A stretch of 64,000 nt of DNA from assembly GCA_034430155.1 (NCBI GenBank), contig DAOUET010000001.1:342-64341 (forward strand). Direction: 5' to 3'. This document shows, one piece after another, positions 30,870 to 53,548 of this stretch. Below the pieces are notes generated by a model. That model made no database searches. It was not told the DNA's origin and saw only the letters and a list, made by a program, of their open reading frames with translations. Each line of letters begins with the position of its first letter. Positions within the stretch are counted from its first letter, which is position 1. The DNA comes from Anaerolineales bacterium (GTDB lineage Bacteria > Chloroflexota > Anaerolineae > Anaerolineales > UBA4823). Made by a program: the position numbers and the translations under genes.

Positions 30870-33800
30870 GATGACACATTTATAGATATGGGGCGGCGGT
30901 TGTGGACTAGGTTGAGAGCAACAATAGCTCCTAGCTGGCGGTGGATTGTTAAATCCTCCGGAGCCAAGTCAGCGGCTCTACGCAGCATATCCTCAGCCGC
31001 CTGGTAGTCACGGATTTCTTTTAGCACAAGGCCAGATTGATAATAGGCACGCGGGTCTTTAGGGGCGATGGATATGGCCTGGTGGTAGGTATTCAGGGCG
31101 AGATCGTACTGGCGTCGTTCTTGATAGGCTGAGCCTAATTCGAGATAGGGCTTGAGGTCCTCGGTAAGCAGCTGGATGGCTTCGCTTAGGTGGTGTATGG
31201 CCTGGTCAAGTTGGCCAGATTGATGAAGCAAGCTACCTAATAAGTAATGGGCGTGTCCCTGAACATCGGGATCCAAGGCGCTGCTCTTGCCGTGCAAGGC
31301 TCGTTGAGCTGCATGGATTGCAGCCTCCCTTTGTCCGGCAGCCGCCAACGCAGTCGCTAATGGGGCGAGTATTGCTGGTTCATCCGGATAATCCTCGGCA
31401 AGATCTTGCAGGGCAGCAAAGGCAGCTTGAGAACCCTGACTTTTTTCAAGAAAATCTACCCGTTCGACCAACAATGGCAGTGGGTCGGAAGAATTCTTAA
31501 TGGCTTGTTCCACCGTTGAAAGGGCATCACTATAGCGTTCAAGACCATCCAGGGCACGAGCCAGATAGTGCAAAGCCTCGGGATCATCAGGTTTAATTTT
31601 AAGAGCCGCTTGAGCCCGCTGGTAAGCACCTCTGGGGTCAGCGGCCTTCAAAGCAACCTCACAACGAAGGAGGAGAGGATCTATCTTATCGGGCTCTAGG
31701 GAAATGGCGTTTTCGACAAGCAAAGCTGCCTTAGCGATATCGCCCTCGGCAATATAAACCTTAGCTAAGGCCATATAAATCTCATAATCCCGGGGCGCAA
31801 GTCGTTGAGCGCCTTCAAGTACCTGAAGTGCACGATCAAGATCACCAGCCTGCATAAGGGCTTCCCCCAAAATGAGATGATGGGTGACATTTTCAGGCTC
31901 CAATTCCGCGGCTTGTTCCAAGTGGGTGATGGCAGCGATGGGGTCACCGGTTTCAAGGTGCAATTGTGCTGCCTGGCTATGCCAACGCGGTTCGTTAGGC
32001 CAGAAGGATAAGGCTGTTTGAAGGGCTTTGAGCGCACTGGGATAATCACCAGTTCGGTGGGCTATGTCAGCATAAAGCACGTGATAAAGCGGTTGATTGG
32101 GTTCCTTATCGACAGCTGATTTGGATTTATTTTTCGCTTCCAGGATATCCTCCTGGCGGCGTCCACGGTAGCCTAATGAGAGGGCTTGCTGGATGAGGAC
32201 ATTGGCATTATATGAGTAAGGATTAGATCTATGAATATCGGTATCAATAGCAAGAGGCGTCTCTGCAAAATCACCTAATTCACGTGCTGTCGCGATACGA
32301 GCCGCGATATCATCGGGTTGAGATGAAAGCGCATCCAAGGCGTGGAGATTTTCTGGGTTAGGCTGAAAAACTGCTTCACCACGTGCTCTCCAACGCTGAA
32401 TCATCAAAGGGAGATTTACCTGTTCATACTGATGTGAAACTGGAAAGCACTCAGTAGCTTTACGCATGCATTCATCGAACGATTGATAAGTTCGTTGGGT
32501 TAATGAAACGGGTCCAGGTGCGTGTTTAATAACATCTGCTGTTTCGCATATGCGTTGATATTCGCCGCGTAAAACCAAGGTACGTGCTAGCTGGAGATGG
32601 CTATAGGGTTCTGAGGGAGCAAGGTTGATAGCTCTGCGCAGGAGGTATAAAGCCATATCCCACTGAGAGAGATCAAGGGCCGCGGCAGCCAGGGCATTTA
32701 GATCTTGAATTTCTGCATAAAGAGCAATTAATGATGAAGTCGGAGAATCGGTCTTGAATGAAATAGCGTGAGGTTCATCACCACTCTCGCTTTGGTCAAT
32801 GTTAAGGGACCCTGCGCTTGCCTCAAAATTCTCCAATCCCAATTTGAGGGTCTCAAAGGCCGTGGGGTTATCACCCCGTGGCTGGGTAAGCCGAGCTTGT
32901 AAAGCGATAATGCGAGGGTGGTTGGGATCAATGCCGATAGCTTTGGTCAGTGCCTCCGCAGCAGCAATCTCCTCACCCTCATCCAGAGCCAATTCAGCGG
33001 AAAGAGCGTAGTAAAGGAAAGCAGCAGTATCCTGTGGGTCATTATTCTCATCCGGTTTAGCATCTGCATAGGAATTTTGATCGCCTGATATGATTTCGCT
33101 CAAAAACCTGCGAGCTTTACCAGGCTGTAGTAAAGCGCGAGACAAGTCTCCAGCGAATGCGCGTGCCAGAAATGCATTCGAACTACCTGTCGTCTGGCTG
33201 CAAGAAGAAACCATTTGTTCAGCGTGAGAAAGGGCCTCAATAAGATCTCCACTAGACCTCAGGATCAGAGCAAGTCTGTGGTGTAAGGTGAGATCGCTGG
33301 GGTTATCCTGTAAGGCATGCTCCAAGGCAGCTTGAGCTGCCTGGGGACGATCCAAATAAAGCAGTAGATCAGCCTTAGAGATATGCAAAGCAGAATCTTG
33401 CGGATTGAGTGTAATGGCACGATTGATAGCTTCCAGGGCACTGTCGTGCTCTCCAGCGTACTTATAGGCAATCGAAAGATCATGAAGCATGCTCGCATCT
33501 GGCTCTGGAAGCAGATTAAGCGCCCGTTCCAGGCATGCGATCGCGCCAGAGGTATCGTTCAGGTTAAGCAATCCCTGGGCAGCTTGTGATAAATCTCCTG
33601 TTTGCGTATGTTCAGAAGAGAGCACTTGATGAAAAGCCTTACGGGCGGCGGTGGTGTCCCCGGTTTGAGTCTGGATGGAGGCCAGCTGCACCAATAAGCT
33701 CGTATCGGCAGGGTTGAGTTGTACGGCGCGACCGAGAGCCTGGAGCGCCTGTGAGTGAGCATCGAGCAGCAGGGCATGCTTCGCGAACCAGGAAAGCGTT

Positions 33801-36490
33801 TCAATATCATCGGGAGCCAGATGGATGGCGTTTTGGGCTGCTGCCAAGGCTTCCTTTGGCAATTGTAGTTTGAGGTACGCCTCAGCCATCAAGCGTTGAA
33901 TATCGGAGTTCTTTGGGTCCAGAAGGGCGCTTTCTTGCAAGATTGCGATGGCAACTTCAGGTTTTTCCAGAGCGAGGGCGGTGCGACCCAAGCCTGTAGC
34001 CAAACGGTTGTGCCAGAATGGGTCGTTGACCAAATCACTATCGAATACATTGAAATAGGATTGCAGAGCGGGGAGCAGCTCGCCATTAGCTGCCATGGCT
34101 TCAGCCAGATATGCTTGACCTAAGGTATTTTCAGGGGAAAGAGTCAAGGCATGACGGGCAGCTTGCAGAGCTTCTTCTGGATGGTCCCCGGTTTCTAAGA
34201 GTGCGAAGGCGTAATCCAGGTGCGGGAAGGGATCGGTCGGTTGTGTCTGCATTGCGACGACTAACGGGGAGATGGCTGCATTAGGTTCATTGAGAGCCAG
34301 TAAGGATTTTGCATAAGCGTGGGCGAGTCCTGGATATGCGGGATTGGTCTGGTAGGCTTCCGCTAAGATTTTGCGCGCCTCGTTCAAATGACCAAGTTCA
34401 TGCAAAGTCTCTCCTAATCGGGTTGCGATATGGGCAGATTGATCCTGATGAGCTAATAAGCTTCGCTCCCCAGGAAGGCCCTTGGCGTTCTTTTTAAGAA
34501 GCGGTGCTAGGGTATGAGGGCGCGAGGCTTGATAAGCCTGCTGTAAGCTGTGTAACGCCTGGGTTGGGGCATTCTGCCTTAGATATATTTCTGCAAGTTC
34601 CAGGTGAACAAGGGGATCGCTGGCGACGGCATGAGTAGCTGATCGCAGGGTGTCGATAGCTTTATCTAAATGACCTGCTCGCTGGTGGGCGTGCGCCAGT
34701 GCCAACCAAGGGGTAGATTGGTAAGGCGTGAATTGGGTAGCTTGTTGGAGATGGTCAAAGGCAGCTTGAGTGTCTCCAAGCGCTTCTAATGCCTCGCCAA
34801 AAGCTGTATGAGCTAAACCATCGGCTGGGCTTTCCCGCAGGATTTGCTGGCAAATGTCTGCAGCGCGCTGAGGTTCACCAGCATGTAAAGCACAGGTAGC
34901 CAGAGCATAATAATGATCATAAGAGGGCCAGGGTAAATCTGGGCTGGGGGTAAAACGCTTTTCCAGTAATTGGGTGCGTTCTTTGAGAGCGTCAGACCAA
35001 TTCCCATTCATCTCGAGGTATTCAACCAGGACAAAGCGCAAGTCGGTGCGCTGAGGGGAAAGCGTAACCGCCATTTGCGCAGCTTCTACGGCAGCGGAAA
35101 GATCCCTAGAGATACGAAACAAGTTTGCCATGGAAGCGTAAAGATCGGGGTCATTGGGCTGTGAGGCGACGGCAAAATGAGCAGCCTTAATAGCTTCATT
35201 AGGCAAACCCAGATCAGCGAATAAATTCATGAGATTGCGGCTAAGACCAGCAGCAACAGAAGCGGATAGCCGGCTGTGTTCCTCACCGATAGTCGTGAGG
35301 GGCTTAACCTGTACTTCTAAAATTTTTAAAGCATGTCGAGCGTTTTTACAAGCCTTATCGAAATTTCCTTGCGATACCGCCAACCGGGCGATGGCCAATA
35401 GATAGGCGGCATCATTAGCGCTTTCTTGATCTTCATCAATAGATGGAAATAAGGCAAGGGCATCGGCCGGTTGGTCTGCTTCCAGCAAGGCTAATATTAA
35501 ACCGGGGGGGGGAAAACTCTCAATGGTAGAACCATATCCATTGGTATGCGGGCGTAATTGCTTCCAGGTTGTCAGGGCTGTGTCAATATTCCCATTTCTG
35601 GCGATCGCCTCGGAGATCTGATCAGCGATCTGGGTCTGCAGCCGTTGGCTGGCTTGAAACGCCATAGTCTCCAAGGAGGCCGATTGTGATATCTGTCCGC
35701 CAATGAAGTTGAGATCAGCCTGAGAGATCAGGTGCACAATTTGATCTATTTGTTCAGCATAATTTCTGTATATCTGACGATTAGGTACGGTAGGTCCCTC
35801 ATTGAGGGTCGACAAGGCTATTGTTGAGGCCAATGCTGGATTGGCGCTTTGAAGGATCCTAAGAAATGTTACCAGATCGTTCAATCGTAAGTCACGCAAG
35901 GCTCCTTCAAGAATGTCTACCTGTTTAGAAGGAGGGATGGGGTTACTTAGAAGGGCATGGGTGGCAAGTTTGAGGTTAGTTATGGGAGCATTGGGATAGA
36001 TGAGGGAACGAAGCAGATCGCTTTGATCCTCAGCAAGACCCAATAAGCATGCCAATGGCGTGTACCAATTGGTCAGGTGAGATGCAAACAAGTCTGCGGT
36101 TAATCCATTCCAGGAACCTATCTTTTGGCGGCGTTCTGCCAAAGCGATGGCTAACAAACCTGCATGAGCCAGGGTAAGTTTATCTGGTAATCCAGAGGAA
36201 TCATCATTAAGGAGGGTCTGGTATGTGCGGACAGCGCGTTGGCGCAGTTTTTCTTCCAATTTATCAAATTCAAGGGGATACGGGTAATCCAGATCAATCA
36301 AGGCCAAAACCGCCGGGGACCATGCCTCAGGATTATTGCCGATTTTGCTAATCGCGCCCTTTCTTTTTTCTTCCTCTTGGAGGGTTTCCCAAATGAGGGC
36401 ATCCTGTCTCAAGGCCGCGATAACCCACGACCAGCTGGTTTCAGGTAAAAGTTCCTTTAATTCGACGACAAGGGATGGGGTCACATTCAT
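30866..36490 (-). CDS. Giant tetratricopeptide-repeat (TPR) protein
   Basis: ~1875 aa from ATG 36490; the ORF track extends to 36544 and would overlap the upstream gene. It contains dozens of 34-aa A/L/Y-rich repeats (...A...Y..AL.L.P....A...LG..), with no other recognisable domain. Confidence 0.8.
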   Translation of the reverse strand: MNVTPSLVVELKELLPETSWSWVIAALRQDALIWETLQEEEKRKGAISKIGNNPEAWSPAVLALIDLDYPYPLEFDKLEEKLRQRAVRTYQTLLNDDSSGLPDKLTLAHAGLLAIALAERRQKIGSWNGLTADLFASHLTNWYTPLACLLGLAEDQSDLLRSLIYPNAPITNLKLATHALLSNPIPPSKQVDILEGALRDLRLNDLVTFLRILQSANPALASTIALSTLNEGPTVPNRQIYRNYAEQIDQIVHLISQADLNFIGGQISQSASLETMAFQASQRLQTQIADQISEAIARNGNIDTALTTWKQLRPHTNGYGSTIESFPPPGLILALLEADQPADALALFPSIDEDQESANDAAYLLAIARLAVSQGNFDKACKNARHALKILEVQVKPLTTIGEEHSRLSASVAAGLSRNLMNLFADLGLPNEAIKAAHFAVASQPNDPDLYASMANLFRISRDLSAAVEAAQMAVTLSPQRTDLRFVLVEYLEMNGNWSDALKERTQLLEKRFTPSPDLPWPSYDHYYALATCALHAGEPQRAADICQQILRESPADGLAHTAFGEALEALGDTQAAFDHLQQATQFTPYQSTPWLALAHAHQRAGHLDKAIDTLRSATHAVASDPLVHLELAEIYLRQNAPTQALHSLQQAYQASRPHTLAPLLKKNAKGLPGERSLLAHQDQSAHIATRLGETLHELGHLNEARKILAEAYQTNPAYPGLAHAYAKSLLALNEPNAAISPLVVAMQTQPTDPFPHLDYAFALLETGDHPEEALQAARHALTLSPENTLGQAYLAEAMAANGELLPALQSYFNVFDSDLVNDPFWHNRLATGLGRTALALEKPEVAIAILQESALLDPKNSDIQRLMAEAYLKLQLPKEALAAAQNAIHLAPDDIETLSWFAKHALLLDAHSQALQALGRAVQLNPADTSLLVQLASIQTQTGDTTAARKAFHQVLSSEHTQTGDLSQAAQGLLNLNDTSGAIACLERALNLLPEPDASMLHDLSIAYKYAGEHDSALEAINRAITLNPQDSALHISKADLLLYLDRPQAAQAALEHALQDNPSDLTLHHRLALILRSSGDLIEALSHAEQMVSSCSQTTGSSNAFLARAFAGDLSRALLQPGKARRFLSEIISGDQNSYADAKPDENNDPQDTAAFLYYALSAELALDEGEEIAAAEALTKAIGIDPNHPRIIALQARLTQPRGDNPTAFETLKLGLENFEASAGSLNIDQSESGDEPHAISFKTDSPTSSLIALYAEIQDLNALAAAALDLSQWDMALYLLRRAINLAPSEPYSHLQLARTLVLRGEYQRICETADVIKHAPGPVSLTQRTYQSFDECMRKATECFPVSHQYEQVNLPLMIQRWRARGEAVFQPNPENLHALDALSSQPDDIAARIATARELGDFAETPLAIDTDIHRSNPYSYNANVLIQQALSLGYRGRRQEDILEAKNKSKSAVDKEPNQPLYHVLYADIAHRTGDYPSALKALQTALSFWPNEPRWHSQAAQLHLETGDPIAAITHLEQAAELEPENVTHHLILGEALMQAGDLDRALQVLEGAQRLAPRDYEIYMALAKVYIAEGDIAKAALLVENAISLEPDKIDPLLLRCEVALKAADPRGAYQRAQAALKIKPDDPEALHYLARALDGLERYSDALSTVEQAIKNSSDPLPLLVERVDFLEKSQGSQAAFAALQDLAEDYPDEPAILAPLATALAAAGQREAAIHAAQRALHGKSSALDPDVQGHAHYLLGSLLHQSGQLDQAIHHLSEAIQLLTEDLKPYLELGSAYQERRQYDLALNTYHQAISIAPKDPRAYYQSGLVLKEIRDYQAAEDMLRRAADLAPEDLTIHRQLGAIVALNLVHNRRPISINVSS

Positions 36491-36512
36491 TTTTTCACCA
36501 ATTAGGAATTCA

Positions 36513-36833
36513 CTAGAAACGAAAAACCAACCAGCTGGCCGCAATCATCAGACCAACGCCTAGCAAAGTCAAAAATACTCCGATCCCTGCAGAGGTGCGG
36601 ATCAAATCATTGGTGGCATTGAGCAGGGCGGAGGCATTGCCGACCAGTCCTGCAACCTCTTCTGCCAGACCTTTTTTCACGAGAAGGGAAGTTTGTTTGG
36701 CTATCGAGCGGACCTCCGCTCCCAATGTACGACGAACCAGGATAATCACTCCGATGATGAAAGAGATGATTCCTATGATGAAAAAACCCAGGATGATGCC
36801 CATTTGAAGATCAAGCAAAGTGATGTTAACCAT
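36513..36833 (-). CDS. Small two-TM membrane protein
   Basis: 106 aa with two clear hydrophobic helices flanking an amphipathic segment. It is tightly packed in the operon, with a 10-nt gap upstream and a 22-nt gap downstream. Confidence 0.5.
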   Translation of the reverse strand: MVNITLLDLQMGIILGFFIIGIISFIIGVIILVRRTLGAEVRSIAKQTSLLVKKGLAEEVAGLVGNASALLNATNDLIRTSAGIGVFLTLLGVGLMIAASWLVFRF

Positions 36834-39424: not shown

Positions 39425-39440
39425 TGCAATTCTCATGCCA
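39425..39440 (-). promoter_or_regulatory. Sigma-54 (-24/-12) promoter candidate upstream of ftsZ
   Basis: The minus strand reads AG-TGGCAT-GAGAA-TTGCA-AC. This fits YTGGCACGrNNNTTGCW with a single C-to-T change. The -24 element overlaps the last codons and stop of the upstream gene. It lies 50-80 nt upstream of the candidate ftsZ starts. Confidence 0.6.
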
Positions 39441-40814: not shown

Positions 40815-40830
40815 TGCAAGAGGTATGCCA
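40815..40830 (-). promoter_or_regulatory. Sigma-54 (-24/-12) promoter candidate upstream of the 452-aa gene
   Basis: The minus strand reads CC-TGGCAT-ACCTC-TTGCA-CC, in the 71-nt gap after the activator gene. It is followed by a GGAGAG RBS and the ATG at 40791. Confidence 0.55.
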
Positions 40831-40862: not shown

Positions 40863-42038
40863 TTAAGAATCAGGGTGGATGATTTCCCTGGGAAGATGGG
40901 GTAAATCGATGGCCGGATCATCGCAGAACAGCATGGCTCTTTCGATGATGTTTTGAAGTTCGCGTATGTTGCCAGGCCAATCATGATTCATCAAAGCCTG
41001 CATTGCGCGGGGGGTTACCTCGGAGATATTTAACCCCATCCTGGGGTTATTTTTTCTCAAGAACAGGCCGATAAGTTCGGGGATATCCTGTTTGCGTTCC
41101 CGTAGAGGTGGCAGGTGTAGATCGACCACTTTCAGCCTATAGTACAGGTCTTCCCGGAATTCAGCGGCTTTGATTAATGAAGGCAAGTCCCTGTTTGAGG
41201 CAGCGATGATTTGCACATCGACGCGCAGCATGTTAGTGCCACCAACCCGGCGAATGGCACCCTCCTCGAGAGCGCGCAGAAGTTTGGCTTGCATTTCTAC
41301 TGGCATAGACGAGATCTCATCGAGGAAAAGGATGCCCTCGTCGGCGATTTCCATCAATCCGGGCTTGCGTTTATCCGCGCTGGTGAATGCACCTGCCTCA
41401 TGCCCAAATAGCTCTGTTTCGAGCATAGTGCTCTGGAGGGCGGCGCAATTCACGGCAATAAACGGTTTTCCAGCCCGAGTTCCCATCTGGTGAAGGGCAT
41501 GGGCTAATACTTCTTTGCCCGTGCCGGTCTCACCGGTAATTAACACAGAGACTGATGCAGTGGCAGCCCGTTGTGCCTGGTTTAGCAAGGATTGCATCGC
41601 CTGGCTGTTACCCACCACAAAATCGAGATGCTTATATTGGGTTTCACGCAGATGGTTTAGCTCACGCTGCATGGAAACCTGTTCTACGGCTCTTTCGATG
41701 GATTTTTCTAATACGTTCAATTGAATCGGTTTCTGTAGAAAATCAAGGGCACCATTCTTCATGGCATCAACCGCCATGTCGATATCGCCATAAGCGGTGA
41801 TCAAAATGATGGGAGGTCGAACAGGGAGATGGGTAGTCTCTTCCAGCAGGGAAGGGCCATAACCATCTGGGAGCAATACATCCAGCAGAATAATATCCGC
41901 TTCACCACGGCGGACATAATTCCGGGCGTCTTCTAAGGTGGCGACTCCATGGACCTCGTAGCCTCGAGAAACTAGAAAGGTGGAGATGTTCTCGCGAGCG
42001 TTATCTTCATCATCAACAATCAAAATAGTTGCGGTCAT
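40863..42038 (-). CDS. Sigma-54-dependent response regulator (REC + AAA+), lacking a C-terminal HTH domain
   Basis: 391 aa. REC domain (ILIVDDE ... IILLDVLLPDG). AAA+ domain with Walker A GETGTGKE, ELFGHEAGAFTSA (a GAFTGA variant) and sensor II GNIRELQN. The protein ends ~25 aa later with no Fis-type HTH. Confidence 0.9.
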   Translation of the reverse strand: MTATILIVDDEDNARENISTFLVSRGYEVHGVATLEDARNYVRRGEADIILLDVLLPDGYGPSLLEETTHLPVRPPIILITAYGDIDMAVDAMKNGALDFLQKPIQLNVLEKSIERAVEQVSMQRELNHLRETQYKHLDFVVGNSQAMQSLLNQAQRAATASVSVLITGETGTGKEVLAHALHQMGTRAGKPFIAVNCAALQSTMLETELFGHEAGAFTSADKRKPGLMEIADEGILFLDEISSMPVEMQAKLLRALEEGAIRRVGGTNMLRVDVQIIAASNRDLPSLIKAAEFREDLYYRLKVVDLHLPPLRERKQDIPELIGLFLRKNNPRMGLNISEVTPRAMQALMNHDWPGNIRELQNIIERAMLFCDDPAIDLPHLPREIIHPDS

Positions 42039-42046
42039 AATCTTCT

Positions 42047-43999
42047 CTAGGTCTCGTTTCGTTCAGCGGCCGGGAAGCGGGCTTGAAAGACCGTTCCTCC
42101 AGGTACGCTGGCAACTTCGATAGTACCCTTGTGAGCAGTGATAATGCGTTTGGCTATCGCCAGACCCAGACCGGTGCCTTCACTATTTGTAGTGAAGAAG
42201 GGCTCAAAAATGTGCTCGCGAATGTCTTCCGGGATACCTGGACCGTTATCCGCTACACTGACCTCGATATGCCGGCGTTCTCCTGGCCGGGTGATCGAAC
42301 GCAAGTGCACGGTGAGCATACCACCTTTTTCTCCCATAGCCTGGATAGCGTTACTGATCAGATTAGTAAAAACCTGTTCCAAGGCGCGAGAATCGCCGAT
42401 TACGAGGGGATTTTTGGCGGTGACGGTAAGTTTATGCTCTATGTTTACGCGTGCCATCCTGGGACGCCAACGTTCTAGTAAGCGGTGAACCAACAAACCG
42501 AGATCAACTTTATCCATCCTGGATTGGGATGGATGCGAGAAGGATAAAACGGATTGCATCAAATGAGCCAGGCGTTCGCAATCGGTTCCTAAACGAGCGA
42601 TGATCTCTTGATTGGGATCATCTTCGGGTAAATTGTAAGCGATGAGTTGAAGGCCAGTGCTGATATTATTGATCGGGTTTCGCACTTCGTGGGCAAAAAT
42701 TGCGGTGATTTCGCCTAGAAGGGCGCGTTGTTCTAACTGTTGGTTACGAACCTGATATTGTTCGCGCTCGCTTAAATCTCGGAGAAGGAGGATGGCGCGA
42801 TGAAATTTGTCTTTGTAAAAGACTGGCAGAATGCGGATGAGGGCCAGAAAAGCGCCCCCATCTCGACGATGTATCCGGACGTTACCTAAATTGTGGGTGG
42901 GTATCCCCTGTTGAGCTGCCTGGAGTGCAGGTATCAGGTTTTCCGCGCCAATGATGACGTTTTCGATCGGTTGACCGTTTACTTCGCGGGTGGCATATCC
43001 AAGAATCCACTCAGCAGAAGGATTCATTTCTATTATTTTTTGATCGGGCCCAATGATGATGACACCTTCCCGCACAGATTCCTTGATGGTATCGGCGAGT
43101 GTAAGACCGATTGATTGTATTTCAATTTGTTCGAACAAGTTGGACGTCAGGGATTTTTGCTGGACGATAGCCATGATTGCGGCTGCTATTATTTGAAGGA
43201 CCGGTAGAATGTTGGTAGTCGGACTTGATGCGGGGTCAGCGATGACGATCAATCCCGAAAATTTTCCAGGTTGGCCGAGGGGCGCTGAAGCCAGGTAGGT
43301 GAATTTTGCCGCTCGAGCTGCTCGCAGTAAACCGCAGGTGGCGCGTTTACCCGGGATCCAGAGGCGGGGATCCAAAATTTGGCTGACATCTGAAGGGGGG
43401 ATGCGTTCAGGCAACTCCGCAGCAGTCCCCCAGTTAGCGATTCGTTTAAGACCCGGTGAGCGAGGGTCGACAACATAGATCGCCAGGATGGCGGCGCCTG
43501 AAAGCGTGTGTCCAGTTTGCAGGGCGGATTGGATGGCCTGTCGAAAGTCGCTTTCCTGGGTGGATAGAATTAATTTGTAGAGAAGGTCTAAAAGTCTGTT
43601 ATGTCGTTGTTTTTCAGCTTGTTGTAAGCGATGAAGCTGCTCTTGCTCCAGGACGACCAGAGCGATCGAGCTTGGGGAGTTGAGGCGGTTTAAAGTTAAG
43701 AACACCTCAACTTTTGTGCCTCGGCGGGCATTAATACTGGTTGTGAAACTTGTGATCGCATTTCCTATGCCTTGAGGGTGATCCATCACCCCCAAAGCTG
43801 GTATCAAGGAGTCCAGGTTGAGATCTATCAATTCGCTCCGTGTAAAAGAAGTCAGTTCGGTAGCTTGGGCATTCGCAAGCAGTATCTCGTTTCCCTGCAA
43901 ATCGACGAGCAAAGCTGCCTGAGGGAAAACGTCGAGAAAACTCTCAATCTCAGTAAGGGACAGCTGCCGACGCCGTAAAAATGACAATGAGGGGAGCAT
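42047..43999 (-). CDS. Cytoplasmic PAS/GAF/PAS sensor histidine kinase
   Basis: 650 aa with no TM segments. H-box [12 protein letters not shown], plus N, G1 and G2 boxes ([26 protein letters not shown]). The gaps to both neighbours are 8-11 nt. Confidence 0.9.
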
Positions 44000-44010: not shown

Positions 44011-45438
44011 CTATGCGGGTTTAGGGGATTCCTTAACCTGACGAAGATGGGATGGCAGGATACCTTCCATGGATCTGTATTTTGCTACCGTACGTCTGGC
44101 GACGTGAAAACCCTGCTCGTTGAGCAGACTGACAATTTCATTGTCGCTTAGAGGTTTTTTTTCGTTGTCGATGATCTCTTTGATCACGCTGCGTATATGG
44201 AGACTGCGATCGAAGAATTTTGAGAGCGGGATAATGTGTCCATTGGGCAGCTGTGCAGCTTTGCTGGAAACTGCTCGTGAAATGGTTGATTCGTGAACAT
44301 CCAGCTCCTCCGCCAATTTGGCCCGGGTGTAAGGACGAAGGTAACAATCACCATGAAGGATAAATTCACGTTGTAATTTGGTGATCCGGCGCATCAAGCG
44401 TACCATAGTATTGGCGCGTTGTTGAATACACTTTACCAGCAAATCTGCACGTTCCAAATCCGATTTCCACTGTTCGACTTTATCGGCAGGAGCTTGCCCG
44501 AGCGCCTGGCGGAAGAGTGGGTTGACTTGAAGCAACCCCAGGAAGGGTGAAACGATTTCCACGACCAGGGGGGCATTAGCGTTGCCCTGGAGTAAAGAGA
44601 TGATCACATCCGGATTATTGTAAACTCTCGGGCTTTCGGCGGTCCCTTGACGGATATCGCCCCAATAAGCACGCCCCGGATATGGATTCAAGTTGTCGCT
44701 GATAAAACGGGCAATCTCCCTAACCTTACGGCTGGATATCCCTAGTAAACGACCTAGTTCGGTATATTGGTGACGGCTGAGTAATTCAAGCCCTGATTTG
44801 ATGGCTTCATCTGCCAGTGGAGGCACGGGGAAATTTTCTGCCAGCAATTCCAATTGTACCAATAAGGCTTCCCGGGGGGAGGAGGAGCCAACACCTACAG
44901 GATCCGCCCGCTGGATAATGTTCAGGATTTTCTCAACCTTCCCAAGCGAAACGTGGTGGTATCGGGCGACTTCCAGAGGGGTGGTGTCCAGCAAACCATC
45001 CTCATCTAAATTGGTAAGCAGATGAGCAGCCAGGCGGCGGTCATCTGGATCAAGATCTGGGGCGATCTGGCGTAATACAAAAGTAGGTAGTTCCTCTTTT
45101 GCAGGTGTAAGGTTTTCCCCGGAGAACTCTTCAGCCGAAGATCTTCTGGATACATAAAAATCCTGGCGAGGAGAAACGAATATGATCGGTTCTTCCATGG
45201 AAAGTGATTTTGGTGTGCTGCAGCGTGGGCAGGGTTGCGAACCGATCAGAGGGCGATGGCAGGTGGGACAACGACGCTCCTCTCTTAACTCTAATGCTGG
45301 ATTTTGTGACAGTTCTGTTTCGATTTTTTGATTTAGTTCAACCGCAGTAAGTTCGAGAAGCGACATGGTTTGAGCCAGGTGCGCGGTGGTGAGCGGACGT
45401 AATGTAGTTGCTGGACGGAGGATCTGAACTTGTAACAT
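44011..45438 (-). CDS. rpoN: RNA polymerase sigma-54 factor with a Zn-ribbon insertion
   Basis: 475 aa. Region I (LTTAHLAQTMSLLELTAVELNQKIETELSQNPALE) and a C-terminal HTH plus RpoN box (ARRTVAKYR). CPTC-x9-CPRC occurs at residues 57-73. Confidence 0.9.
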   Translation of the reverse strand: MLQVQILRPATTLRPLTTAHLAQTMSLLELTAVELNQKIETELSQNPALELREERRCPTCHRPLIGSQPCPRCSTPKSLSMEEPIIFVSPRQDFYVSRRSSAEEFSGENLTPAKEELPTFVLRQIAPDLDPDDRRLAAHLLTNLDEDGLLDTTPLEVARYHHVSLGKVEKILNIIQRADPVGVGSSSPREALLVQLELLAENFPVPPLADEAIKSGLELLSRHQYTELGRLLGISSRKVREIARFISDNLNPYPGRAYWGDIRQGTAESPRVYNNPDVIISLLQGNANAPLVVEIVSPFLGLLQVNPLFRQALGQAPADKVEQWKSDLERADLLVKCIQQRANTMVRLMRRITKLQREFILHGDCYLRPYTRAKLAEELDVHESTISRAVSSKAAQLPNGHIIPLSKFFDRSLHIRSVIKEIIDNEKKPLSDNEIVSLLNEQGFHVARRTVAKYRSMEGILPSHLRQVKESPKPA

Positions 45439-45540
45439 AATGATGAAATCCTTTGATGCTGCTTATCAAAATGAAGGAATCTTAAAATTGAGAATTAAAC
45501 TCATGGAATTTTCTTCTCAGTAGAGACATATACACTCGTT

Positions 45541-45556
45541 GCAAGTTCCGTGCCAG
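45541..45556 (-). promoter_or_regulatory. Sigma-54 (-24/-12) promoter upstream of rpoN
   Basis: The minus strand reads C-TGGCAC-GGAAC-TTGCA-A, a perfect match to TGGCACG-N4-TTGCW. It lies ~100 nt upstream of the rpoN ATG. Confidence 0.7.
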
Positions 45557-45636
45557 CTGTTATTGAGAACCACCCCCTGATTAGATGTTTATAGCCCTGC
45601 TGACTAACCAGGGGGTGTAGTAAATCTTCTCATTTC

Positions 45637-45665
45637 AATTATCGCGAAAAATCCGAGCGAGTCAA
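45637..45665 (-). promoter_or_regulatory. Sigma-70-type promoter upstream of the rpoN sigma-54 promoter
   Basis: The minus strand reads TTGACT (45665-45660), a 17-nt spacer, then ATAATT (45642-45637). Confidence 0.45.
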
Positions 45666-45694
45666 GCGAATTGCATAATTGTTAGGTTTTCTGG

Positions 45695-46195
45695 TCATGG
45701 CTGGTCAGGAGCAGGGGCGACTTGAACCATAGTAGTAGACCCATCGGGGGCAGTAAGCATCACGGCGATGTGCTGCGCTCCCGATCTCGGAATTAAGATA
45801 TAGCCAGAACAGCTGCCTACCCACTGGTTCTTAACCCCAGAATGGGGGTATAGGGTGCAGTCTTCGGGTATATCTTGTTTATTTGTATCTAATGGTTGAT
45901 CGCTGATAGCCCAACCCGAGGATTTCCATAACTCTGCGACCAGGTCTGTGGTGGCCACGAACACCTGACCTTCAAATTCTGCCATTCCCTGGGGTATTTG
46001 GGAGGGGTTTGAAGAGGACTGAGACTTAGACGAAATCGGTGCACCGGCTTCTCCTGCTGGATTGATGGAGGAGGCTGAGTCTGGGACTTGTGCGGCATCT
46101 GTGAGGATGGATGCTGAGGAGATTTGCACAGGAGAACAAGCGGATGAAAGACTTAAAATGAACAACAATACCGGGATAAAAATAATTTTGCCCAT
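45695..46195 (-). CDS. Small lipoprotein, unknown function
   Basis: 166 aa with a lipobox (LSLSSAC). A Ser/Pro-rich linker is followed by a ~90-aa globular part. Confidence 0.6.
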   Translation of the reverse strand: MGKIIFIPVLLFILSLSSACSPVQISSASILTDAAQVPDSASSINPAGEAGAPISSKSQSSSNPSQIPQGMAEFEGQVFVATTDLVAELWKSSGWAISDQPLDTNKQDIPEDCTLYPHSGVKNQWVGSCSGYILIPRSGAQHIAVMLTAPDGSTTMVQVAPAPDQP

Positions 46196-46262
46196 CTTTA
46201 CGCGGGCCTCCGATCTACTCTAAGGGGGGAGGTTAATTCTTTAATCTCCTTGCGGGTGAAGA

Positions 46263-46278
46263 TGCAAGATTGGGGCCA
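46263..46278 (-). promoter_or_regulatory. Weaker sigma-54-like element upstream of the lipoprotein gene
   Basis: The minus strand reads TT-TGGCCC-CAATC-TTGCA-TC. GG-N10-GC spacing and the full -12 TTGCA are kept, with one mismatch in the -24 hexamer. It lies 68 nt upstream of ATG 46195. Confidence 0.3.
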
Positions 46279-46344
46279 AAATCGAACGAAGAGCCAATTA
46301 GCTGCAGTGCAATGGACAAAGGCTATCCTGCTTGAGATGACTCA

Positions 46345-46530
46345 TCACCAGGTATCAAAGTATTCAAGCCCATGATACCAAGACAGGGTATTCGGGTCGA
46401 AGCCCATACGTTGACAATAACGTTCTTCAATCCCTCGACCGCGCAACCCCGGCGATACAAAGAAAGGCAACAAGAACTCGTGGAAAGGATCGCTAAACCC
46501 AGCGTTCTCAAAATCGATGATGCCTGCCAA
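46345..46530 (-). pseudogene. 3' remnant of an APH/choline-kinase-type phosphotransferase gene
   Basis: Only the last ~60 codons are present (IIDFENAGFSDP...). This corresponds to the Mg-binding DFE/DFG segment onward. The catalytic-loop region and everything N-terminal are absent, because the tRNA-Arg terminator abuts it. Confidence 0.5.
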
Positions 46531-46536
46531 CTAGCG

Positions 46537-46562
46537 AAATCGGTCGCAATTGCGACCGATTT
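46537..46562 (-). terminator. Perfect 26-nt palindrome just 3' of tRNA-Arg
   Basis: AAATCGGTCGCAATTGCGACCGATTT, an 11-bp stem with an AATT loop. It starts 8 nt after the tRNA 3' end and its 3' arm ends in TTT on the minus strand. Confidence 0.6.
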
Positions 46563-46569
46563 TGAGTCA

Positions 46570-46641
46570 TACCCCCACCGCGACTCGAACGCGGGTATCT
46601 GCCTCCGGAGGGCAGCGCTCTATCCACTGAGCTATGGGGGC
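46570..46641 (-). tRNA. tRNA-Arg (anticodon CCG)
   Basis: The reverse complement is GCCCCCATAGCTCAGTGGATAGAGCGCTGCCCTCCGGAGGCAGATACCCGCGTTCGAGTCGCGGTGGGGGTA. The anticodon stem is CTGCC/GGCAG with loop CTCCGGA (CCG). The T arm is CCGCG-TTCGAGT-CGCGG. There is a G1-U72 wobble, and CCA is not encoded. Confidence 0.88.
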
Positions 46642-46677
46642 AAACAGCGACTAGATTTTACCATGAGTTCATAGAGG

Positions 46678-47313
46678 TCACTTGAGTATCAGTTTTGTTC
46701 GGGTCAGAGAGACTGAATGCGATGAGATCCCCAGGGCATCCAGGACTTCTTCAGGTCGCCCGGTGGCGCCTTCCCTGGCGGAAAGGCGCATGGACAGGCG
46801 TTGGCAGCCTGCAGCGGTATCGGGTAGCCTGGAGAGGTTTTCGATTAACGGACGAAGGTCATAGCCTCTACCGCGGCGCTCACGGTTAAGGTGATCCTCA
46901 GAAAGCAAGATTGCGAGCCGGTTATCAAGGTCGATAACAGACTCTAAGATTTCAGCAGCATACTCCGCAGCAGTGATCTGGGTTGGAAGGGCGGCTTCTT
47001 GTAAACCGACTTGCTCGAGATGGTAAATTGTAACCCCTGGGGGCAGAGTACTCTGAAGGGCGCTGAGAACTTCAGAAATTGGCATTCCTTTCTCCAACCA
47101 GACATCAAGGATTTCACCCAGACTAGTTATGCCCAGAGGAAGAGCGCAGGCTAGAATAATTTTTGGGCGGGGATTATATCCCTGGCTGTAGGCGAGAGGC
47201 AAACCTGCCCGACGGAAAGTACGTTCCCAAGTACGGTGGAGATCCAGATGGCTGGTATATCGCATCGCTTCGGTTTTGGAAAAGGTGATGCGCAGTCGGA
47301 TTTGGTTGGTCAT
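46678..47313 (-). CDS. TIGR03936-family (DUF2344) radical-SAM-associated protein
   Basis: 211 aa. IRLRITFSKTEAMRYTSHLDLHRTWERTFRRAGLPLAYSQGYNPRPK is the family's signature N-terminus. It lies directly downstream of its usual radical SAM partner. Confidence 0.85.
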   Translation of the reverse strand: MTNQIRLRITFSKTEAMRYTSHLDLHRTWERTFRRAGLPLAYSQGYNPRPKIILACALPLGITSLGEILDVWLEKGMPISEVLSALQSTLPPGVTIYHLEQVGLQEAALPTQITAAEYAAEILESVIDLDNRLAILLSEDHLNRERRGRGYDLRPLIENLSRLPDTAAGCQRLSMRLSAREGATGRPEEVLDALGISSHSVSLTRTKLILK

Positions 47314-49967: not shown

Positions 49968-52900
49968 CTATTGAAGCAGCTCTTCTGCTTTCGTATAGGC
50001 ATCCAGGGCTTTCTGGAGATGGTCGCCACGCAAGTAAGCATCTCCCAATAATTGTAAAATATCCAGGTTCTGAGGTTGATGAGCAACCATTTCCTCTAAA
50101 TCGGGAATGATATCATCTAAGAGTTTACCTTCCTCAACCAGACCGGCATAGCAATCCAAAGCCTCATGGAGGTTTTCCTCTACGAGAGCGTTGCGAGCTT
50201 CGGCCAGGCGTTGGAGAGCCGGGTCCTGAGTAATGGCTTGCTCTTCTTCCACCACATCCACTTCGAGCCAGTTTTTAAAGTTTTCCAGGATAACCGGACC
50301 AATTCCAGGTACGTTCTGCAATTGCTCAAGGCTGGTAAAGGGACCATTAGTCTGGCGATAAGTGACGATGCTTTTAGCAGTAACGCTGCCTATGCCAGGG
50401 ATATGTTCCAATTGGGAAAATGAGGCTGAATTAATTGGGATGTGAGGGATTGATTCGGGAATAGCTGCCACAGGTGGCTCTTCCTCTTCTGGCTCTTCGG
50501 GCTGTACTTCAATCTCGGTGACCTCTTCAACTTCGATGATCTCTTCCGGGGGAACCTCTAGCTCCTCAAGAACAGCAGTAGGTGGGTACTCTTCCGGTTC
50601 TTCTTCTTCGAATTCCTGTAACCATTCAGGGATCTGCTCCAATTCCTCGATTTCTTCCGCTTCGGTGGTTGGTACTATTGGAGGCTCTTGTGGAGCTGGC
50701 TCAATGCTTTCTTCGCCAACCCATTCGGGCGTTTCAATGGATTCCGGGACAGACCCGGTGATAGCGGGGGTCTGTGGTTCAACTTCCTCTTCGAAGGGCA
50801 CTTGTTCGGCTTGAATTTCTGTTTCAACTTGGGGAGCAAATGGTTCTACAACTTCTAAGGGTTCAGCTGAGACGATTTCATCTTCGCTCCAACTGGCCTC
50901 TTCTTCTGGTATTTCAGGTGTGACCCGGACAGGCTGGGTATCACCTTCAATCATTTCAGTGACTTGGTAAATTGTTCCGGATTCCGGGGTGGAAGTAAGC
51001 TGCGGGGCGATCTCTTCCATACTTGGAACTTCCTGATCGGCTTCAGTCGTCCAATCACCAATTTCGAGCTCACCACTCTCGGCTTCCTCTCCTATACCGC
51101 TCAGCCATTCGGGGATATCGAAATCTCCAGGGGGTTCTGTCGAGACGCTTTCGGTTTCTAGGTCTGCTTCCAAAGGTGTGCTTTCAATAGGTTCCTGGAT
51201 GCCTTCCGGGGGAGATTCCCCTTCCATAGCAGACAACCATTCTGGGAGACTCTCTGCTTCTTCATCAGATTCGACTTCTGTCAAGGATGCAGCTTGTAAC
51301 CAGTCGTGAAGTGGTTCTTCTTCGATTTCCCCAGCTTCTAAGGGGGATGGTTCCTCGGAAAATTCACCTGCAACCATCTCCTGAGAAAATTTCGACAACC
51401 ATTCAGGTGGTGTTTCGAAACGCTCTTCAGGAGAGCTGAACAGCTCTTCTTCTGGGGCACCCTGTTTAGCTGCTAAACCCTCCAACCATGCCAGGGCAGA
51501 TTCTTGATCTTCACGATCAAGATCAGATATCGAAGCTGTTTCGATTTCAGGGGGTTCAGCGGTCTCGGAATCGAAGGTCTCTACCAGTTCGGGTTCTGGT
51601 ACTGGTGGTTGTTCTTCTTTGGCGGATTCATCGCTCATGCTTTGTAACCACTCTGGGGTTTCAAATTCCTCTCCAGATTGATCGGCTTCTTCTTGCATCC
51701 ATTCCGGGATTTGCTCTTCTTCGGGCTGTTGGCCAAGATCCTCGACCTCAGGTAATTCAGCCGCGACCTGCGGGGTTTCATCAGCAGTTGCTTCGACCTC
51801 CTCTTCGGGTGTTGGCTCACTTTCCTCTTGAGATGCCTCACTCATTTGCTTTAACCATTCTGGGACTTCGGGACTTTCTATCGCACCACTGGTCTCAGTC
51901 GACAACCATTCGGAGAGCTGCTCCTCGTCGGCTTCAAAGGGAGTTGCATCTACCAGGATTTCTTCTTCTTCAGGAATTTGCTCCTCAATGTCTCCAGGCA
52001 CACCAGCGCCAATATCTTGCAGCCAGGCAGGCATTTCTGGTTCACCTTCTGGAGTTTCCCCTGTAAAGAGGTCAGATTGATCATCGACCGGCTGACCCTC
52101 GCCTATTTCTTGAAGCCACCCAGGAATTTCTTCTCCTTGTTCGGGAGCTTGCTCTTTCAGAAAATCGGGTTGGTAAGCAGCTTGATCGCCCTCAGCACCA
52201 GCTTTTGGAGGCGCCATCGAACGCAACCATTCTGGAATTTCACCGGGTTCCAACCCTTCTGGGCTTTCACCTTCAAAATCAAATGGGATAGGAGATTCTC
52301 CTTCTTCACCAGTACCATCTTCGCTTATCGTCTCTTCAGCTCCTTCCATCTTTATTTCAGGTTCTAATTCACGCTCAGGTTCAACAAAACTAGTGTCTTC
52401 CTGCGTAGCAGGAGTGCCCTCGAAAGATCCAACCTCACTTTCGAAGGGTGGGGTCTCACCAAGGGGCGAAGAAAGCCATTCTGGTAAACCTTTACCCACA
52501 GGAGTAAGGTCGGAAACGTCAACCCCGAGCGAAGTAGCCCAATCAGGTTGCTCCGATATGCTGGGAATCTGTTCCTGGATGGATCCATCGTACTTATCGA
52601 TACTGATGGCAGCATCCGGAACCTGGTCGGCAGCTGGAATCTGGGGAGAGGTGAAGGCTGCGTACGGATCGAGAGCTTGCACCCGTTGTAAATATGCCTG
52701 CGCATCACCAGCACGTTCAGTTCCTGGCAAGATTTGAGCCAGGATTTGGTTGGCTTCCAGGCAGTAGGGCAGCTTGCTGAGCAGGGTACTGCAAGTCTCA
52801 GCGGATTCCAAGCGTTGACCTGTCTGGAGGTACATACGGGCAAGAAGGACTTGGAGATCAGGCCTTTGGGGATCTTCAGCCAGGGCAGCACGCAACTCTG

Positions 52901-53351
52901 AGATAGCTTGTTGATAAAGGCTCCCTCTGGCATACATGCGAGCGAGAGCACCGCGGGTCAGATGGATTTTTGGAGGTTGTATGCCATCTCGCCGGCCGTA
53001 AAGACGTTTGAGTTCATCTTGAATGGTTAGGTTTGAAGGCTGACTCTCAAAAGCACGTTCCATATGCCAGATGGCGGCATCCAGATTACCCTCGTCCTCT
53101 CGGATGATGCTCATCCCGATATGAGAAACGAAATCATCGGGCACCGAGGATAGCACCCGCTGAAGAATATCAGCGGCGTCAGCGTATCGTTTCTTCTCCA
53201 GGTACGCTTTCCCGAGGAGACGGTAGGTTGCTACCTCCTTGGGATAGATTTGTAAGATATAGCGACAATGAGCGATAGCTTCATCTATACCAGCGCTATC
53301 GATTAGATGATCAATCTCACGTAGATATGCTCTCAAAGAAATTTTTGCCAT
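49968..53351 (-). CDS. TPR / acidic PEWL-repeat / ComEA-type helix-hairpin-helix / TPR protein
   Basis: 1127 aa. N-terminal TPRs span ~residues 1-250. A ~650-aa Glu/Pro-rich region carries 15 (I/L)PEWL-type motifs. The tandem HhH is LEHIPGIGSVTAKSIVTYRQTNGPFTSLEQLQNVPGIGPVILENF. A C-terminal TPR pair follows. Confidence 0.8.
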   Translation of the reverse strand: MAKISLRAYLREIDHLIDSAGIDEAIAHCRYILQIYPKEVATYRLLGKAYLEKKRYADAADILQRVLSSVPDDFVSHIGMSIIREDEGNLDAAIWHMERAFESQPSNLTIQDELKRLYGRRDGIQPPKIHLTRGALARMYARGSLYQQAISELRAALAEDPQRPDLQVLLARMYLQTGQRLESAETCSTLLSKLPYCLEANQILAQILPGTERAGDAQAYLQRVQALDPYAAFTSPQIPAADQVPDAAISIDKYDGSIQEQIPSISEQPDWATSLGVDVSDLTPVGKGLPEWLSSPLGETPPFESEVGSFEGTPATQEDTSFVEPERELEPEIKMEGAEETISEDGTGEEGESPIPFDFEGESPEGLEPGEIPEWLRSMAPPKAGAEGDQAAYQPDFLKEQAPEQGEEIPGWLQEIGEGQPVDDQSDLFTGETPEGEPEMPAWLQDIGAGVPGDIEEQIPEEEEILVDATPFEADEEQLSEWLSTETSGAIESPEVPEWLKQMSEASQEESEPTPEEEVEATADETPQVAAELPEVEDLGQQPEEEQIPEWMQEEADQSGEEFETPEWLQSMSDESAKEEQPPVPEPELVETFDSETAEPPEIETASISDLDREDQESALAWLEGLAAKQGAPEEELFSSPEERFETPPEWLSKFSQEMVAGEFSEEPSPLEAGEIEEEPLHDWLQAASLTEVESDEEAESLPEWLSAMEGESPPEGIQEPIESTPLEADLETESVSTEPPGDFDIPEWLSGIGEEAESGELEIGDWTTEADQEVPSMEEIAPQLTSTPESGTIYQVTEMIEGDTQPVRVTPEIPEEEASWSEDEIVSAEPLEVVEPFAPQVETEIQAEQVPFEEEVEPQTPAITGSVPESIETPEWVGEESIEPAPQEPPIVPTTEAEEIEELEQIPEWLQEFEEEEPEEYPPTAVLEELEVPPEEIIEVEEVTEIEVQPEEPEEEEPPVAAIPESIPHIPINSASFSQLEHIPGIGSVTAKSIVTYRQTNGPFTSLEQLQNVPGIGPVILENFKNWLEVDVVEEEQAITQDPALQRLAEARNALVEENLHEALDCYAGLVEEGKLLDDIIPDLEEMVAHQPQNLDILQLLGDAYLRGDHLQKALDAYTKAEELLQ
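50550..52515 (-). repeat. In-frame coding repeat region: 15 copies of acidic spacer + x-P-E-W-L-x motif
   Basis: The motifs, in order, are LPEWLSS, IPEWLRS, IPGWLQE, MPAWLQD, LSEWLST, VPEWLKQ, IPEWMQE, TPEWLQS, ALAWLEG, PPEWLSK, LHDWLQA, LPEWLSA, IPEWLSG, TPEWVGE and IPEWLQE. Variable-length E/P/S/T-rich spacers separate them. Coordinates are approximate. Confidence 0.7.
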
Positions 53352-53548
53352 TTTTATACTCCCTATCCTTGGTGGTAAGGGGATATTCAGGGTGTGTCGC
53401 TCTTAAATATATCCATTCATTAGTATGCCCTATTCTACATGAAGATGCAAGGAAAATTTTAATAATTTTCGCGAATCTTTATTTCAGATGCACGAAATAT
53501 ACCAAACTGGCAAATCACAATTTCTAAACACATCCAAATCCTTGTGTA

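Follow-up and report, generated by a model that had tools for sequence, protein, structure and literature searches.

We analysed computationally, from its sequence, a 64-kb stretch of DNA from a member of the Anaerolineales (Chloroflexota), hereafter the window, and concentrated on the promoters in front of rpoN, the gene for sigma-54. By exact-protein look-up the window falls in GCA_964463975.1, a metagenome-assembled genome of the Anaerolineales. On the minus strand, rpoN (44011–45438) encodes a protein of 475 amino acids (aa) that matches the Pfam families Sigma54_AID, Sigma54_CBD and Sigma54_DBD and contains the RpoN box ARRTVAKYR. A gene for a 650-aa PAS histidine kinase with the H-box FAHEVRNP (42047–43999, minus strand) begins 11 nucleotides (nt) after the rpoN stop and is followed, after a gap of 8 nt, by the gene for a 391-aa response-regulator-type sigma-54 activator (40863–42038, minus strand). 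The order rpoN, PAS kinase, activator was kept in every relative with enough flanking sequence. These three genes belong to a row of about 8 kb that also comprises a gene for a 166-aa lipoprotein-like protein upstream and, downstream, a 452-aa gene and ftsZ. Between the lipoprotein-like gene and rpoN lie, in the direction of transcription, a sigma-70-type promoter, an inverted repeat and a -24/-12 element.

The activator has a receiver domain (D53) and an AAA+ domain with a GAFTSA loop, matching Pfam Sigma54_activat, and it ends at the AAA+ lid (residue 388 of 391). It has no C-terminal helix-turn-helix (HTH), and the Pfam search gave no HTH_8 match. Residues 5–380 align with the NtrC1 construct 1NY5, which lacks the DNA-binding domain (DBD), and the orthologues (388–403 aa) are likewise without an HTH. 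The kinase appears to be cytoplasmic, because no transmembrane segment was seen when its sequence was read by eye. As a separate observation, RpoN carries a CxxC-N9-CxxC motif (C57, C60, C70, C73; residues 57–73, encoded at about 45270–45220 on the minus strand) in region II, between region I and the core-binding domain, and the motif was invariant in all 30 aligned orthologues. It may form a zinc ribbon. E. coli sigma-54 has an acidic region II at this position, and to our knowledge no zinc ribbon has been described in a characterised sigma-54 protein.

The -24/-12 element in front of rpoN, CTGGCACGGAACTTGCAA, occupies positions 45539–45556 of the minus strand, with its GG at 45554–45553 and its GC at 45542–45541. 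Read on that strand (acagCTGGCACGGAACTTGCAAcgag, or in longer context aataacagCTGGCACGGAACTTGCAAcgagtg), its first C is position 45556 and its last A position 45539. The two dinucleotides are spaced exactly as GG-N10-GC, and TGGCACG-N4-TTGCW was matched at 12 of 12 positions. The element points towards rpoN, 101 nt separate the end of its 16-mer from the ATG, and there is no intervening gene and no called terminator. A perfect TGGCAC-N5-TTGCW occurred only here on both strands of the window (0.06 expected; 6 of 100 shuffled windows had one). With a weight matrix trained on 35 sites of relatives, the window excluded, the element was the top-scoring position of the window, at 25.8 bits against a threshold of at least 18 bits for a strong match. 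Transcription from it is predicted to start near 45530, about 12 nt beyond the GC, and to give a leader of about 92 nt (45439–45529, minus strand), which is poorly conserved (37% of positions invariant) apart from the Shine-Dalgarno sequence AAAGGA at 45454–45449. A structured leader or riboswitch between this start and the ATG was rejected on account of the poor conservation and a fold energy equal to that of shuffled sequences (z = 0.03).

To follow the element through the order, we assembled 19 non-redundant Anaerolineales rpoN loci, including the window, with RpoN identities to the window's protein of 44–100%. Two loci are close (L085, 88%; L087, 86%); the others are more distant (L001, 66%; L098–L103, 62–66%; L005–L013, 44–61%). 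L001 was the sole close locus from a genome-collection scan with a single protein. A metagenome scan with generic patterns yielded 80 loci, of which 9 were close relatives and the remainder served as a cross-phylum comparison set. A site was counted when a GG-N10-GC scoring at least 9/12 stood on the coding strand no more than 150 nt upstream of the rpoN start. Such a site was present in 18 of the 19 loci, no farther than about 100 nt from the ATG; on the opposite strand, only 1 of 19 had one. Given a background of 0.088 sites per 350 nt, taken from 1.45 Mb of fetched sequence, the enrichment has a P of about 2e-18. Aligned on the GG, the rpoN sites of the relatives give the consensus TGGCAcaaa.CTTGCAAC, and among the three closest distinct sequences 14 of the 16 positions of the 16-mer are invariant. 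We therefore regard the element, with high confidence from conservation and consensus, as a genuine and conserved sigma-54 promoter element.

Farther upstream, the sigma-70-type promoter (45637–45665, minus strand) consists of a -35 hexamer TTGACT at 45665–45660 and a -10 hexamer GATAAT at 45643–45638, or ATAATT at 45642–45637. Our promoter scan paired TTGACT with GATAAT over a 16-nt spacer, with 10 of 12 matches, and ranked the pair among the two best in 9.5 kb. Conservation of this promoter, as of the hairpin described below, was assessed in three distinct close sequences only, those of the window, L085 and L087. In these, the -35 hexamer was invariant at 6/6 positions and the -10 hexamer at 6/6, as was TTTTTCGC directly 5' of the -10, and the 5' half of the spacer varied. 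We read the pair as a promoter because invariant hexamers around a variable 5' spacer half are the usual promoter signature. Its start is predicted near 45631, some 100 nt before the one predicted for the sigma-54 element. In all three sequences it lies 85 nt upstream of the sigma-54 element, in tandem and without overlap, and no -10 box was found within -40 to +60 of the sigma-54 site, except for a weak AATAAT in L087.

The more distant relatives are arranged differently. A -10 box overlaps or abuts the sigma-54 element in 14 of the 15 distant element-bearing loci (TATAAT in 12, TATACT in L100, TATAAA in L012), and overlap between the two kinds of promoter, absent from the window, was recorded for 15 more distant relatives. 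Perfect TATAAT boxes within -40 to +60 of the site were found in 11 of the 15 loci outside the window's subclade, against a background of 0.02 per 100 nt (P about 4e-16). In seven loci (L005, L006, L009, L099, L101, L102, L103) the arrangement is xTGGCA-N17-TATAAT, the -24 element doubling as a -35, and lies about 50 nt upstream of rpoN; an example is TTGGCA-N17-TATAAT, whose spacer contains TTGCAAC. In L007, L008, L013 and L100 the -12 element doubles as the -35 (TTGCAA-N16-18-TATAAT or TATACT). TATAAT stands about 20 nt upstream of the GG in L001 and L098, and TATAAT or TATAAA lies within the -24/-12 spacer in L010 and L012. The tandem arrangement, with 85 nt between the promoters, is that of the window, L085 and L087. 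Across the relatives, then, the sigma-54 element stays put and the position of the -10 box shifts. At L099 (8001–8066) we noted that the public RpoN call (491 aa, P0052) reaches back beyond the gene's own promoter: the called open reading frame (ORF) takes in the TGGCATAAATCTTGCA-TATAAT element at 8012–8039, and the ATG at 8064 or 8067 is the more likely start. This type of N-terminal over-extension may be shared by several of the RpoN entries that are 490–518 aa long.

These -10 boxes accompany the rpoN element and almost never the neighbouring sigma-54 promoters of the relatives (those of ftsZ, the 452-aa gene and the 166-aa gene). rpoN alone would thus consistently be given a sigma-54-independent input, as is required of a gene whose product must be there before its own promoter can be read, and this supports the idea of priming without sigma-54. 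The sole relative without GG-N10-GC, L011 (4860–4957), retains TTGCCA-N17-TATACT, placed in the same register as TTGGCA-N17-TATAAT in the loci that have it. L011 thus resembles a natural variant that has lost the sigma-54 determinants and kept those for sigma-70, which suggests that the sigma-70 reading works on its own.

An earlier sequence-only reading of this DNA had proposed a -24/-12 element about 100 nt before the rpoN ATG, a TTGACT-17-ATAATT promoter at 45665–45637 roughly 100 nt further upstream, and a unit of rpoN, kinase and activator genes. The element is there, with 12/12 matches, 101 nt before what is a real rpoN, and the comparison of upstream regions in relatives that had been suggested as a check found it kept and correctly oriented in 18 of 19 loci. 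The upstream site is present too, as TTGACT-16-GATAAT read one base over, and the predicted starts near 45631 and 45530 agree with the spacing. A putative sigma-54-independent promoter beside the element is supported by the conserved TTGACT/GATAAT of the subclade and the -10 boxes of the distant loci, and the three genes do form a tightly packed unit of conserved order.

Between the two promoters lies an inverted repeat, CACCCCCTGGTTAG-N19-CTAATCAGGGGGTG (45571–45617, minus strand), that is conserved in the window's subclade: 13/14 and 12/14 positions of the arms and 10/19 of the loop are invariant among the window, L085 and L087. As RNA it would form a 14-bp stem, which GAGAA/UUCUC can extend, with a fold energy of -30.2 kcal/mol (z = -1.95). 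A conserved AGCAGGG in the loop could pair alternatively with the 5' arm. Three identities for the hairpin were rejected. As to a known RNA family, a search of 45300–46800 against Rfam matched only a tRNA-Arg and gave nothing for the hairpin. Nor does it belong to a dispersed repeat, since within the window it is copied nowhere outside its own two arms. It does not look like an intrinsic terminator either: the terminator scan did not call it, it has no U-tract, and U makes up just 3 of the 8 bases that follow the stem. Possible roles are to stabilise the sigma-70 transcript or attenuate it, to end the transcript of the upstream gene, or to bind a protein.

Candidate sigma-54 promoters are not confined to rpoN. 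At the threshold of at least 18 bits the matrix gave exactly four matches in the window (25.8, 24.0, 22.4 and 20.1 bits), compared with 0.06 in shuffles. Each of the four falls on the minus strand, in a gap between genes of this row, and the three besides the rpoN element are near-consensus sites. Upstream of rpoN, TGGCCCCAATCTTGCA (46263–46278, minus strand; 20.1 bits) precedes the 166-aa gene (46195–45695), whose product begins with a signal peptide followed by a Cys; the site is kept in L001, L012, L085, L087 and L098. Directly downstream of the activator gene, TGGCATACCTCTTGCA (40815–40830, minus strand; 24.0 bits) precedes the 452-aa gene (40791–39433), with sites at the equivalent position in 8 relatives. 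The last, TGGCATGAGAATTGCA (39425–39440, minus strand; 22.4 bits), precedes ftsZ (39375–38221); it overlaps the stop of the gene in front, and no TATAAT adjoins it. It is kept at L001:13945, L012:12923, L098:14010, L099:16135 and L102:15826, and it suggests sigma-54 control of the cell-division gene ftsZ in filamentous Anaerolineales. As far as sequence can tell, the four conserved sites are the signature of a local sigma-54 regulon and not an isolated motif.

The products of the row's less familiar genes gave few leads: Pfam, at E ≤ 0.1, had no match for the 452-aa and 166-aa proteins or for 81-aa and 275-aa neighbours, and a sequence search of the Protein Data Bank had none for the 452-aa protein. 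On its upstream side, the row is separated from DUF2344 and radical-SAM genes by a tRNA-Arg(CCG) gene (46569–46642, minus strand) and then a terminator-like hairpin, aatcggtcgcaattgcgaccgatt, which together probably insulate it from upstream transcription. A gene for a giant TPR protein of about 1850–1890 aa recurs a few genes downstream of the module (window 30866–36544, minus strand; L098:17045-; L100:13047-). In L100 the gene comes after a 107-aa ORF, and this ORF has a sigma-54 site in front of it, immediately behind the activator gene. Elsewhere in the window, a weak matrix match, TGGTATATTTCGTGCA (13.2 bits; 53489–53504, minus strand), lies about 140 nt upstream of an 1127-aa ORF (49968–53351), below the range of the training sites.

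Taken as a whole, these features are best explained, in our judgement with somewhat better than even chances, by a sigma-54 operon that transcribes itself, is primed by sigma-70 and is fired by its own activator. The sigma-70-type promoter about 100 nt upstream would give basal sigma-54, kinase and activator from a transcript that crosses the conserved hairpin. A signal sensed by the PAS kinase would lead to phosphorylation of the activator's receiver domain, and the AAA+ activator would then need no enhancer, acting from solution on any sigma-54 holoenzyme in a closed complex. Lacking a DNA-binding domain, it could not choose among promoters and should fire any bound holoenzyme, including the one at rpoN. 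It would thus fire the promoters of the lipoprotein-like gene, the 452-aa gene and ftsZ together with that of its own operon, where the element at 45556–45539 would transcribe rpoN, the PAS kinase gene and the activator gene, with positive feedback on all three components. With the activator inactive, the bound sigma-54 holoenzyme would be transcriptionally silent. In most relatives, where the two promoters overlap, this silent complex should compete with the sigma-70 holoenzyme and would damp basal expression, adding a homeostatic component. In the window the promoters do not overlap, which makes a positive role more likely here. From the arrangement of these features we infer that sigma-54 binds, where transcription starts, that it depends on the activator, and how strong the feedback is and of which sign. 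Within this picture, that the upstream sigma-70-like element primes rpoN is a moderately favoured proposition, and we lean to about the same degree towards positive feedback.

Several observations weigh against this account. The activator's loop, at about residues 215–220, reads GAFTSA, and the canonical sequence is GAFTGA. The TTGACT/GATAAT match is by itself statistically unremarkable (15 sigma-70-like sites were found in the 9.5 kb scanned, compared with 8.7 expected), and its conservation is drawn from just three distinct sequences. The overlap of the two promoter types in most relatives would fit occlusion or repression equally well. Another DNA-binding activator, or none, may act at the rpoN promoter, since the view extends to the window and to fragments of the other genomes. 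Finally, the hairpin, though it has no U-tract, could halt sigma-70 transcripts before they reach rpoN; were it to terminate efficiently, the upstream promoter would not prime rpoN.

Three other explanations deserve to be weighed against a self-transcribed operon. That the -24/-12 match has no function and arose by chance we reject, giving it next to no credence. One perfect match somewhere in the window, as seen in six of the hundred shuffles, would not be extraordinary, yet 18 of the 19 loci keep both position and orientation, even where RpoN identity falls to 44%, three more conserved sites with strong matrix scores lie in the same gene row, and the footprint of conservation in close relatives covers the element. 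It is harder to set aside, though still improbable, that the sigma-54 promoter is real but TTGACT/GATAAT and the hairpin form a separate unit that does not prime rpoN. Such a unit could be an attenuator, a short RNA (about 70 nt), an upstream region bound by a protein, or the 3' end of the transcript of the 166-aa gene. In that case rpoN would owe its basal expression to another source, for example read-through from the promoter of the lipoprotein-like gene or weak initiation at TGGCAC-N17-TATATG. The stretch that runs from the -35 hexamer to the sigma-54 element, with an invariant fraction of roughly 0.55–1.0 compared with 0.37 for the leader, is what a separate unit would lead one to expect, as is the fold of the predicted sigma-70 transcript, whose first ~69 nt form a single closed hairpin (-30 kcal/mol). 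The upstream promoter is also limited to the three closest sequences, the -10 box of distant relatives being elsewhere. On the other hand, the hairpin has no U-tract, was not called as a terminator and matches no Rfam family, and the pattern of conservation in and around the hexamers is that of an ordinary promoter. Moreover, the other lineages all keep a -10 box at rpoN, so that loss of the sigma-54-independent input here would be an exception.

The remaining alternative accepts both promoters and reverses the sign of the feedback: the -24/-12 element would mainly limit rpoN, the closed sigma-54 complex blocking the sigma-70 holoenzyme either by occlusion, where the elements overlap, or, in the window, as a roadblock in the path of polymerase that comes from the promoter farther upstream. 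Overlaps suited to occlusion are common in the relatives, with seven loci that use the -24 and four that use the -12 as a -35, two with TATAAT about 20 nt upstream of the GG and two with TATAAT or TATAAA inside the spacer. In the cross-phylum set, AGGCATATAATTTGCT, whose spacer contains TATAAT, stands at -91 to -94 in L045, L074 and L083, three Pseudomonas-like loci. R. leguminosarum rpoN and R. etli rpoN1 have been reported to be under negative autoregulation, and P. putida rpoN is negatively autoregulated as well. These genes resemble the present case in that sigma-54 acts on its own gene, and the window's relatives show the occlusion-type overlap; they differ from the window, where the promoters are 85 nt apart and a perfect sigma-54 element is aimed at rpoN. 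In the window and its two closest relatives, where the sigma-70-like promoter does not overlap the element, occlusion is inapplicable, and we know of no established case of roadblocking by closed sigma-54 complexes. Pure occlusion, in addition, needs no particular orientation, yet all 18 sites point towards rpoN, and a cognate activator without a DNA-binding domain should be unable to skip one promoter, so that holoenzyme bound there would be expected to fire. We consider repression as the main role of the element unlikely, and retain the self-transcribed operon as the preferred explanation.

Individual parts of this arrangement have counterparts elsewhere. Overlapping sigma-54 and sigma-70 promoters are found at E. 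coli glmY, and L006, L009, L099 and L101–L103 likewise superimpose both promoter types on about 35 bp; in the window, by contrast, the promoters are in tandem and the controlled gene is that of the sigma factor itself. Enhancer-independent activation by a protein without a DNA-binding domain is the type represented by Chlamydia CtcB/CtcC and by the FlgS/FlgR system of H. pylori, which we do not know to have been described as driven by its own sigma-54 promoter. With FlgS/FlgR the window shares a REC-AAA+ activator without a C-terminal HTH and an apparently cytoplasmic kinase, and action from solution would be expected here by analogy. FlgR lacks a DNA-binding domain and activates the sigma-54 holoenzyme without enhancers (PMC9696931). 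In H. pylori, however, rpoN (HP0714), flgR (HP0703) and flgS (HP0244) are scattered and not neighbouring (PMC9696931), whereas in the window the corresponding genes form one unit.

The sequence-only reading had also held that rpoN is not read from a sigma-54 promoter in well-studied systems, which would make the present arrangement unusual. This overstated the case, as R. capsulatus nifU2-rpoN and the rhizobial prxS-rpoN2 operons contradict it. R. capsulatus nifU2-rpoN is an autoactivated superoperon according to the summary of Cullen et al. 1994 in PMC6925177, which gives rpoN a weak constitutive sigma-54-independent promoter, needed for basal expression, and a promoter dependent on sigma-54 and an activator that amplifies rpoN under inducing conditions. 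Two promoters acting on rpoN and the logic of priming followed by positive feedback, experimentally established there as the same summary presents it, are the likeness to what is proposed for the window. The wiring differs: in R. capsulatus the sigma-54 promoter stands before nifU2 and the constitutive promoter is proximal, whereas in the window the sigma-54 promoter is the proximal one, directly before rpoN. The R. capsulatus activator, NifA, is a DNA-binding protein that depends on an upstream activator sequence (UAS) and is encoded elsewhere; that of the window has no DNA-binding domain and would be co-transcribed with rpoN and the kinase gene. No NifA-type UAS was identified by eye upstream of the window's rpoN, no dedicated pattern search having been run. 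R. capsulatus, furthermore, is a member of the Pseudomonadota and its operon has a nif context, and the window is from Chloroflexota and non-nif.

The prxS-rpoN2 operons of R. etli and M. loti depend on NifA and RpoN (PMC3538637). In M. loti a -24/-12 promoter, ATGGCACGGCGCTTGCG, drives prxS-rpoN2, and a weak extra promoter or basal expression has been invoked to start the loop (PMC3538637). These operons resemble the window, where a -24/-12 promoter would likewise drive an rpoN-containing operon, and differ in that rpoN2 is an additional copy of the gene, specific to symbiosis and open to priming by RpoN1, in their dependence on NifA and a UAS, and in having the kinase and activator outside the operon. 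Sigma-54 sites at rpoN may in fact be commoner than textbooks suggest: in the cross-phylum set, 17 of 60 rpoN loci had a site of at least 9/12 within 350 nt upstream, where about 5 were expected (P about 1e-5). Some of these sites come back at similar positions in related loci, one recurrent form being CGGCGCG-N4-TTGCT; those of L034, L053, L060, L066 and L024 lie at -47 to -66 from rpoN.

The logic of rpoN autoactivation has thus been known since 1994, and what is new is its variant wiring in Chloroflexota: the phylum, a sigma-54 promoter that abuts rpoN, a kinase and an activator within the operon, an activator without a DNA-binding domain, and composite or tandem promoters. The usual view of sigma-54 is of a constitutively present factor, whose regulation falls to many activators that bind enhancers and are specific for particular promoters. 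In this lineage, sigma-54, kinase and activator probably boost their own production, and if so, the amount of the whole sigma-54 machinery would itself be a regulated variable. The design of an autoactivated rpoN would then extend from the nif and symbiosis systems of alphaproteobacteria to Chloroflexota, perhaps with a regulon served by a single activator. The relatives provide a natural series of geometries (overlap at -24, overlap at -12, abutting, nested and tandem), together with one loss of the sigma-54 element, which could be used to learn how the feedback loop owes its basal level and its threshold to competition between the holoenzymes of sigma-70 and sigma-54.

Because the activator could not discriminate among promoters and all three components would feed back on themselves, one may go further and picture sigma-54, the PAS kinase and the activator as a single self-amplifying, enhancer-independent module that acts as an all-or-none (bistable) switch over cell division or filament development through a small regulon including ftsZ and envelope genes. 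We infer such feed-forward behaviour and bistability from gene content and promoter layout, and offer the switch as a speculation with the odds against it. If it were true, the repeated changes in the sigma-70 priming promoter, set against a constant sigma-54 element, would represent tuning of the switch's threshold. If confirmed, the conserved sigma-54 promoter before ftsZ would tie sigma-54 to cell division in a filamentous phylum.

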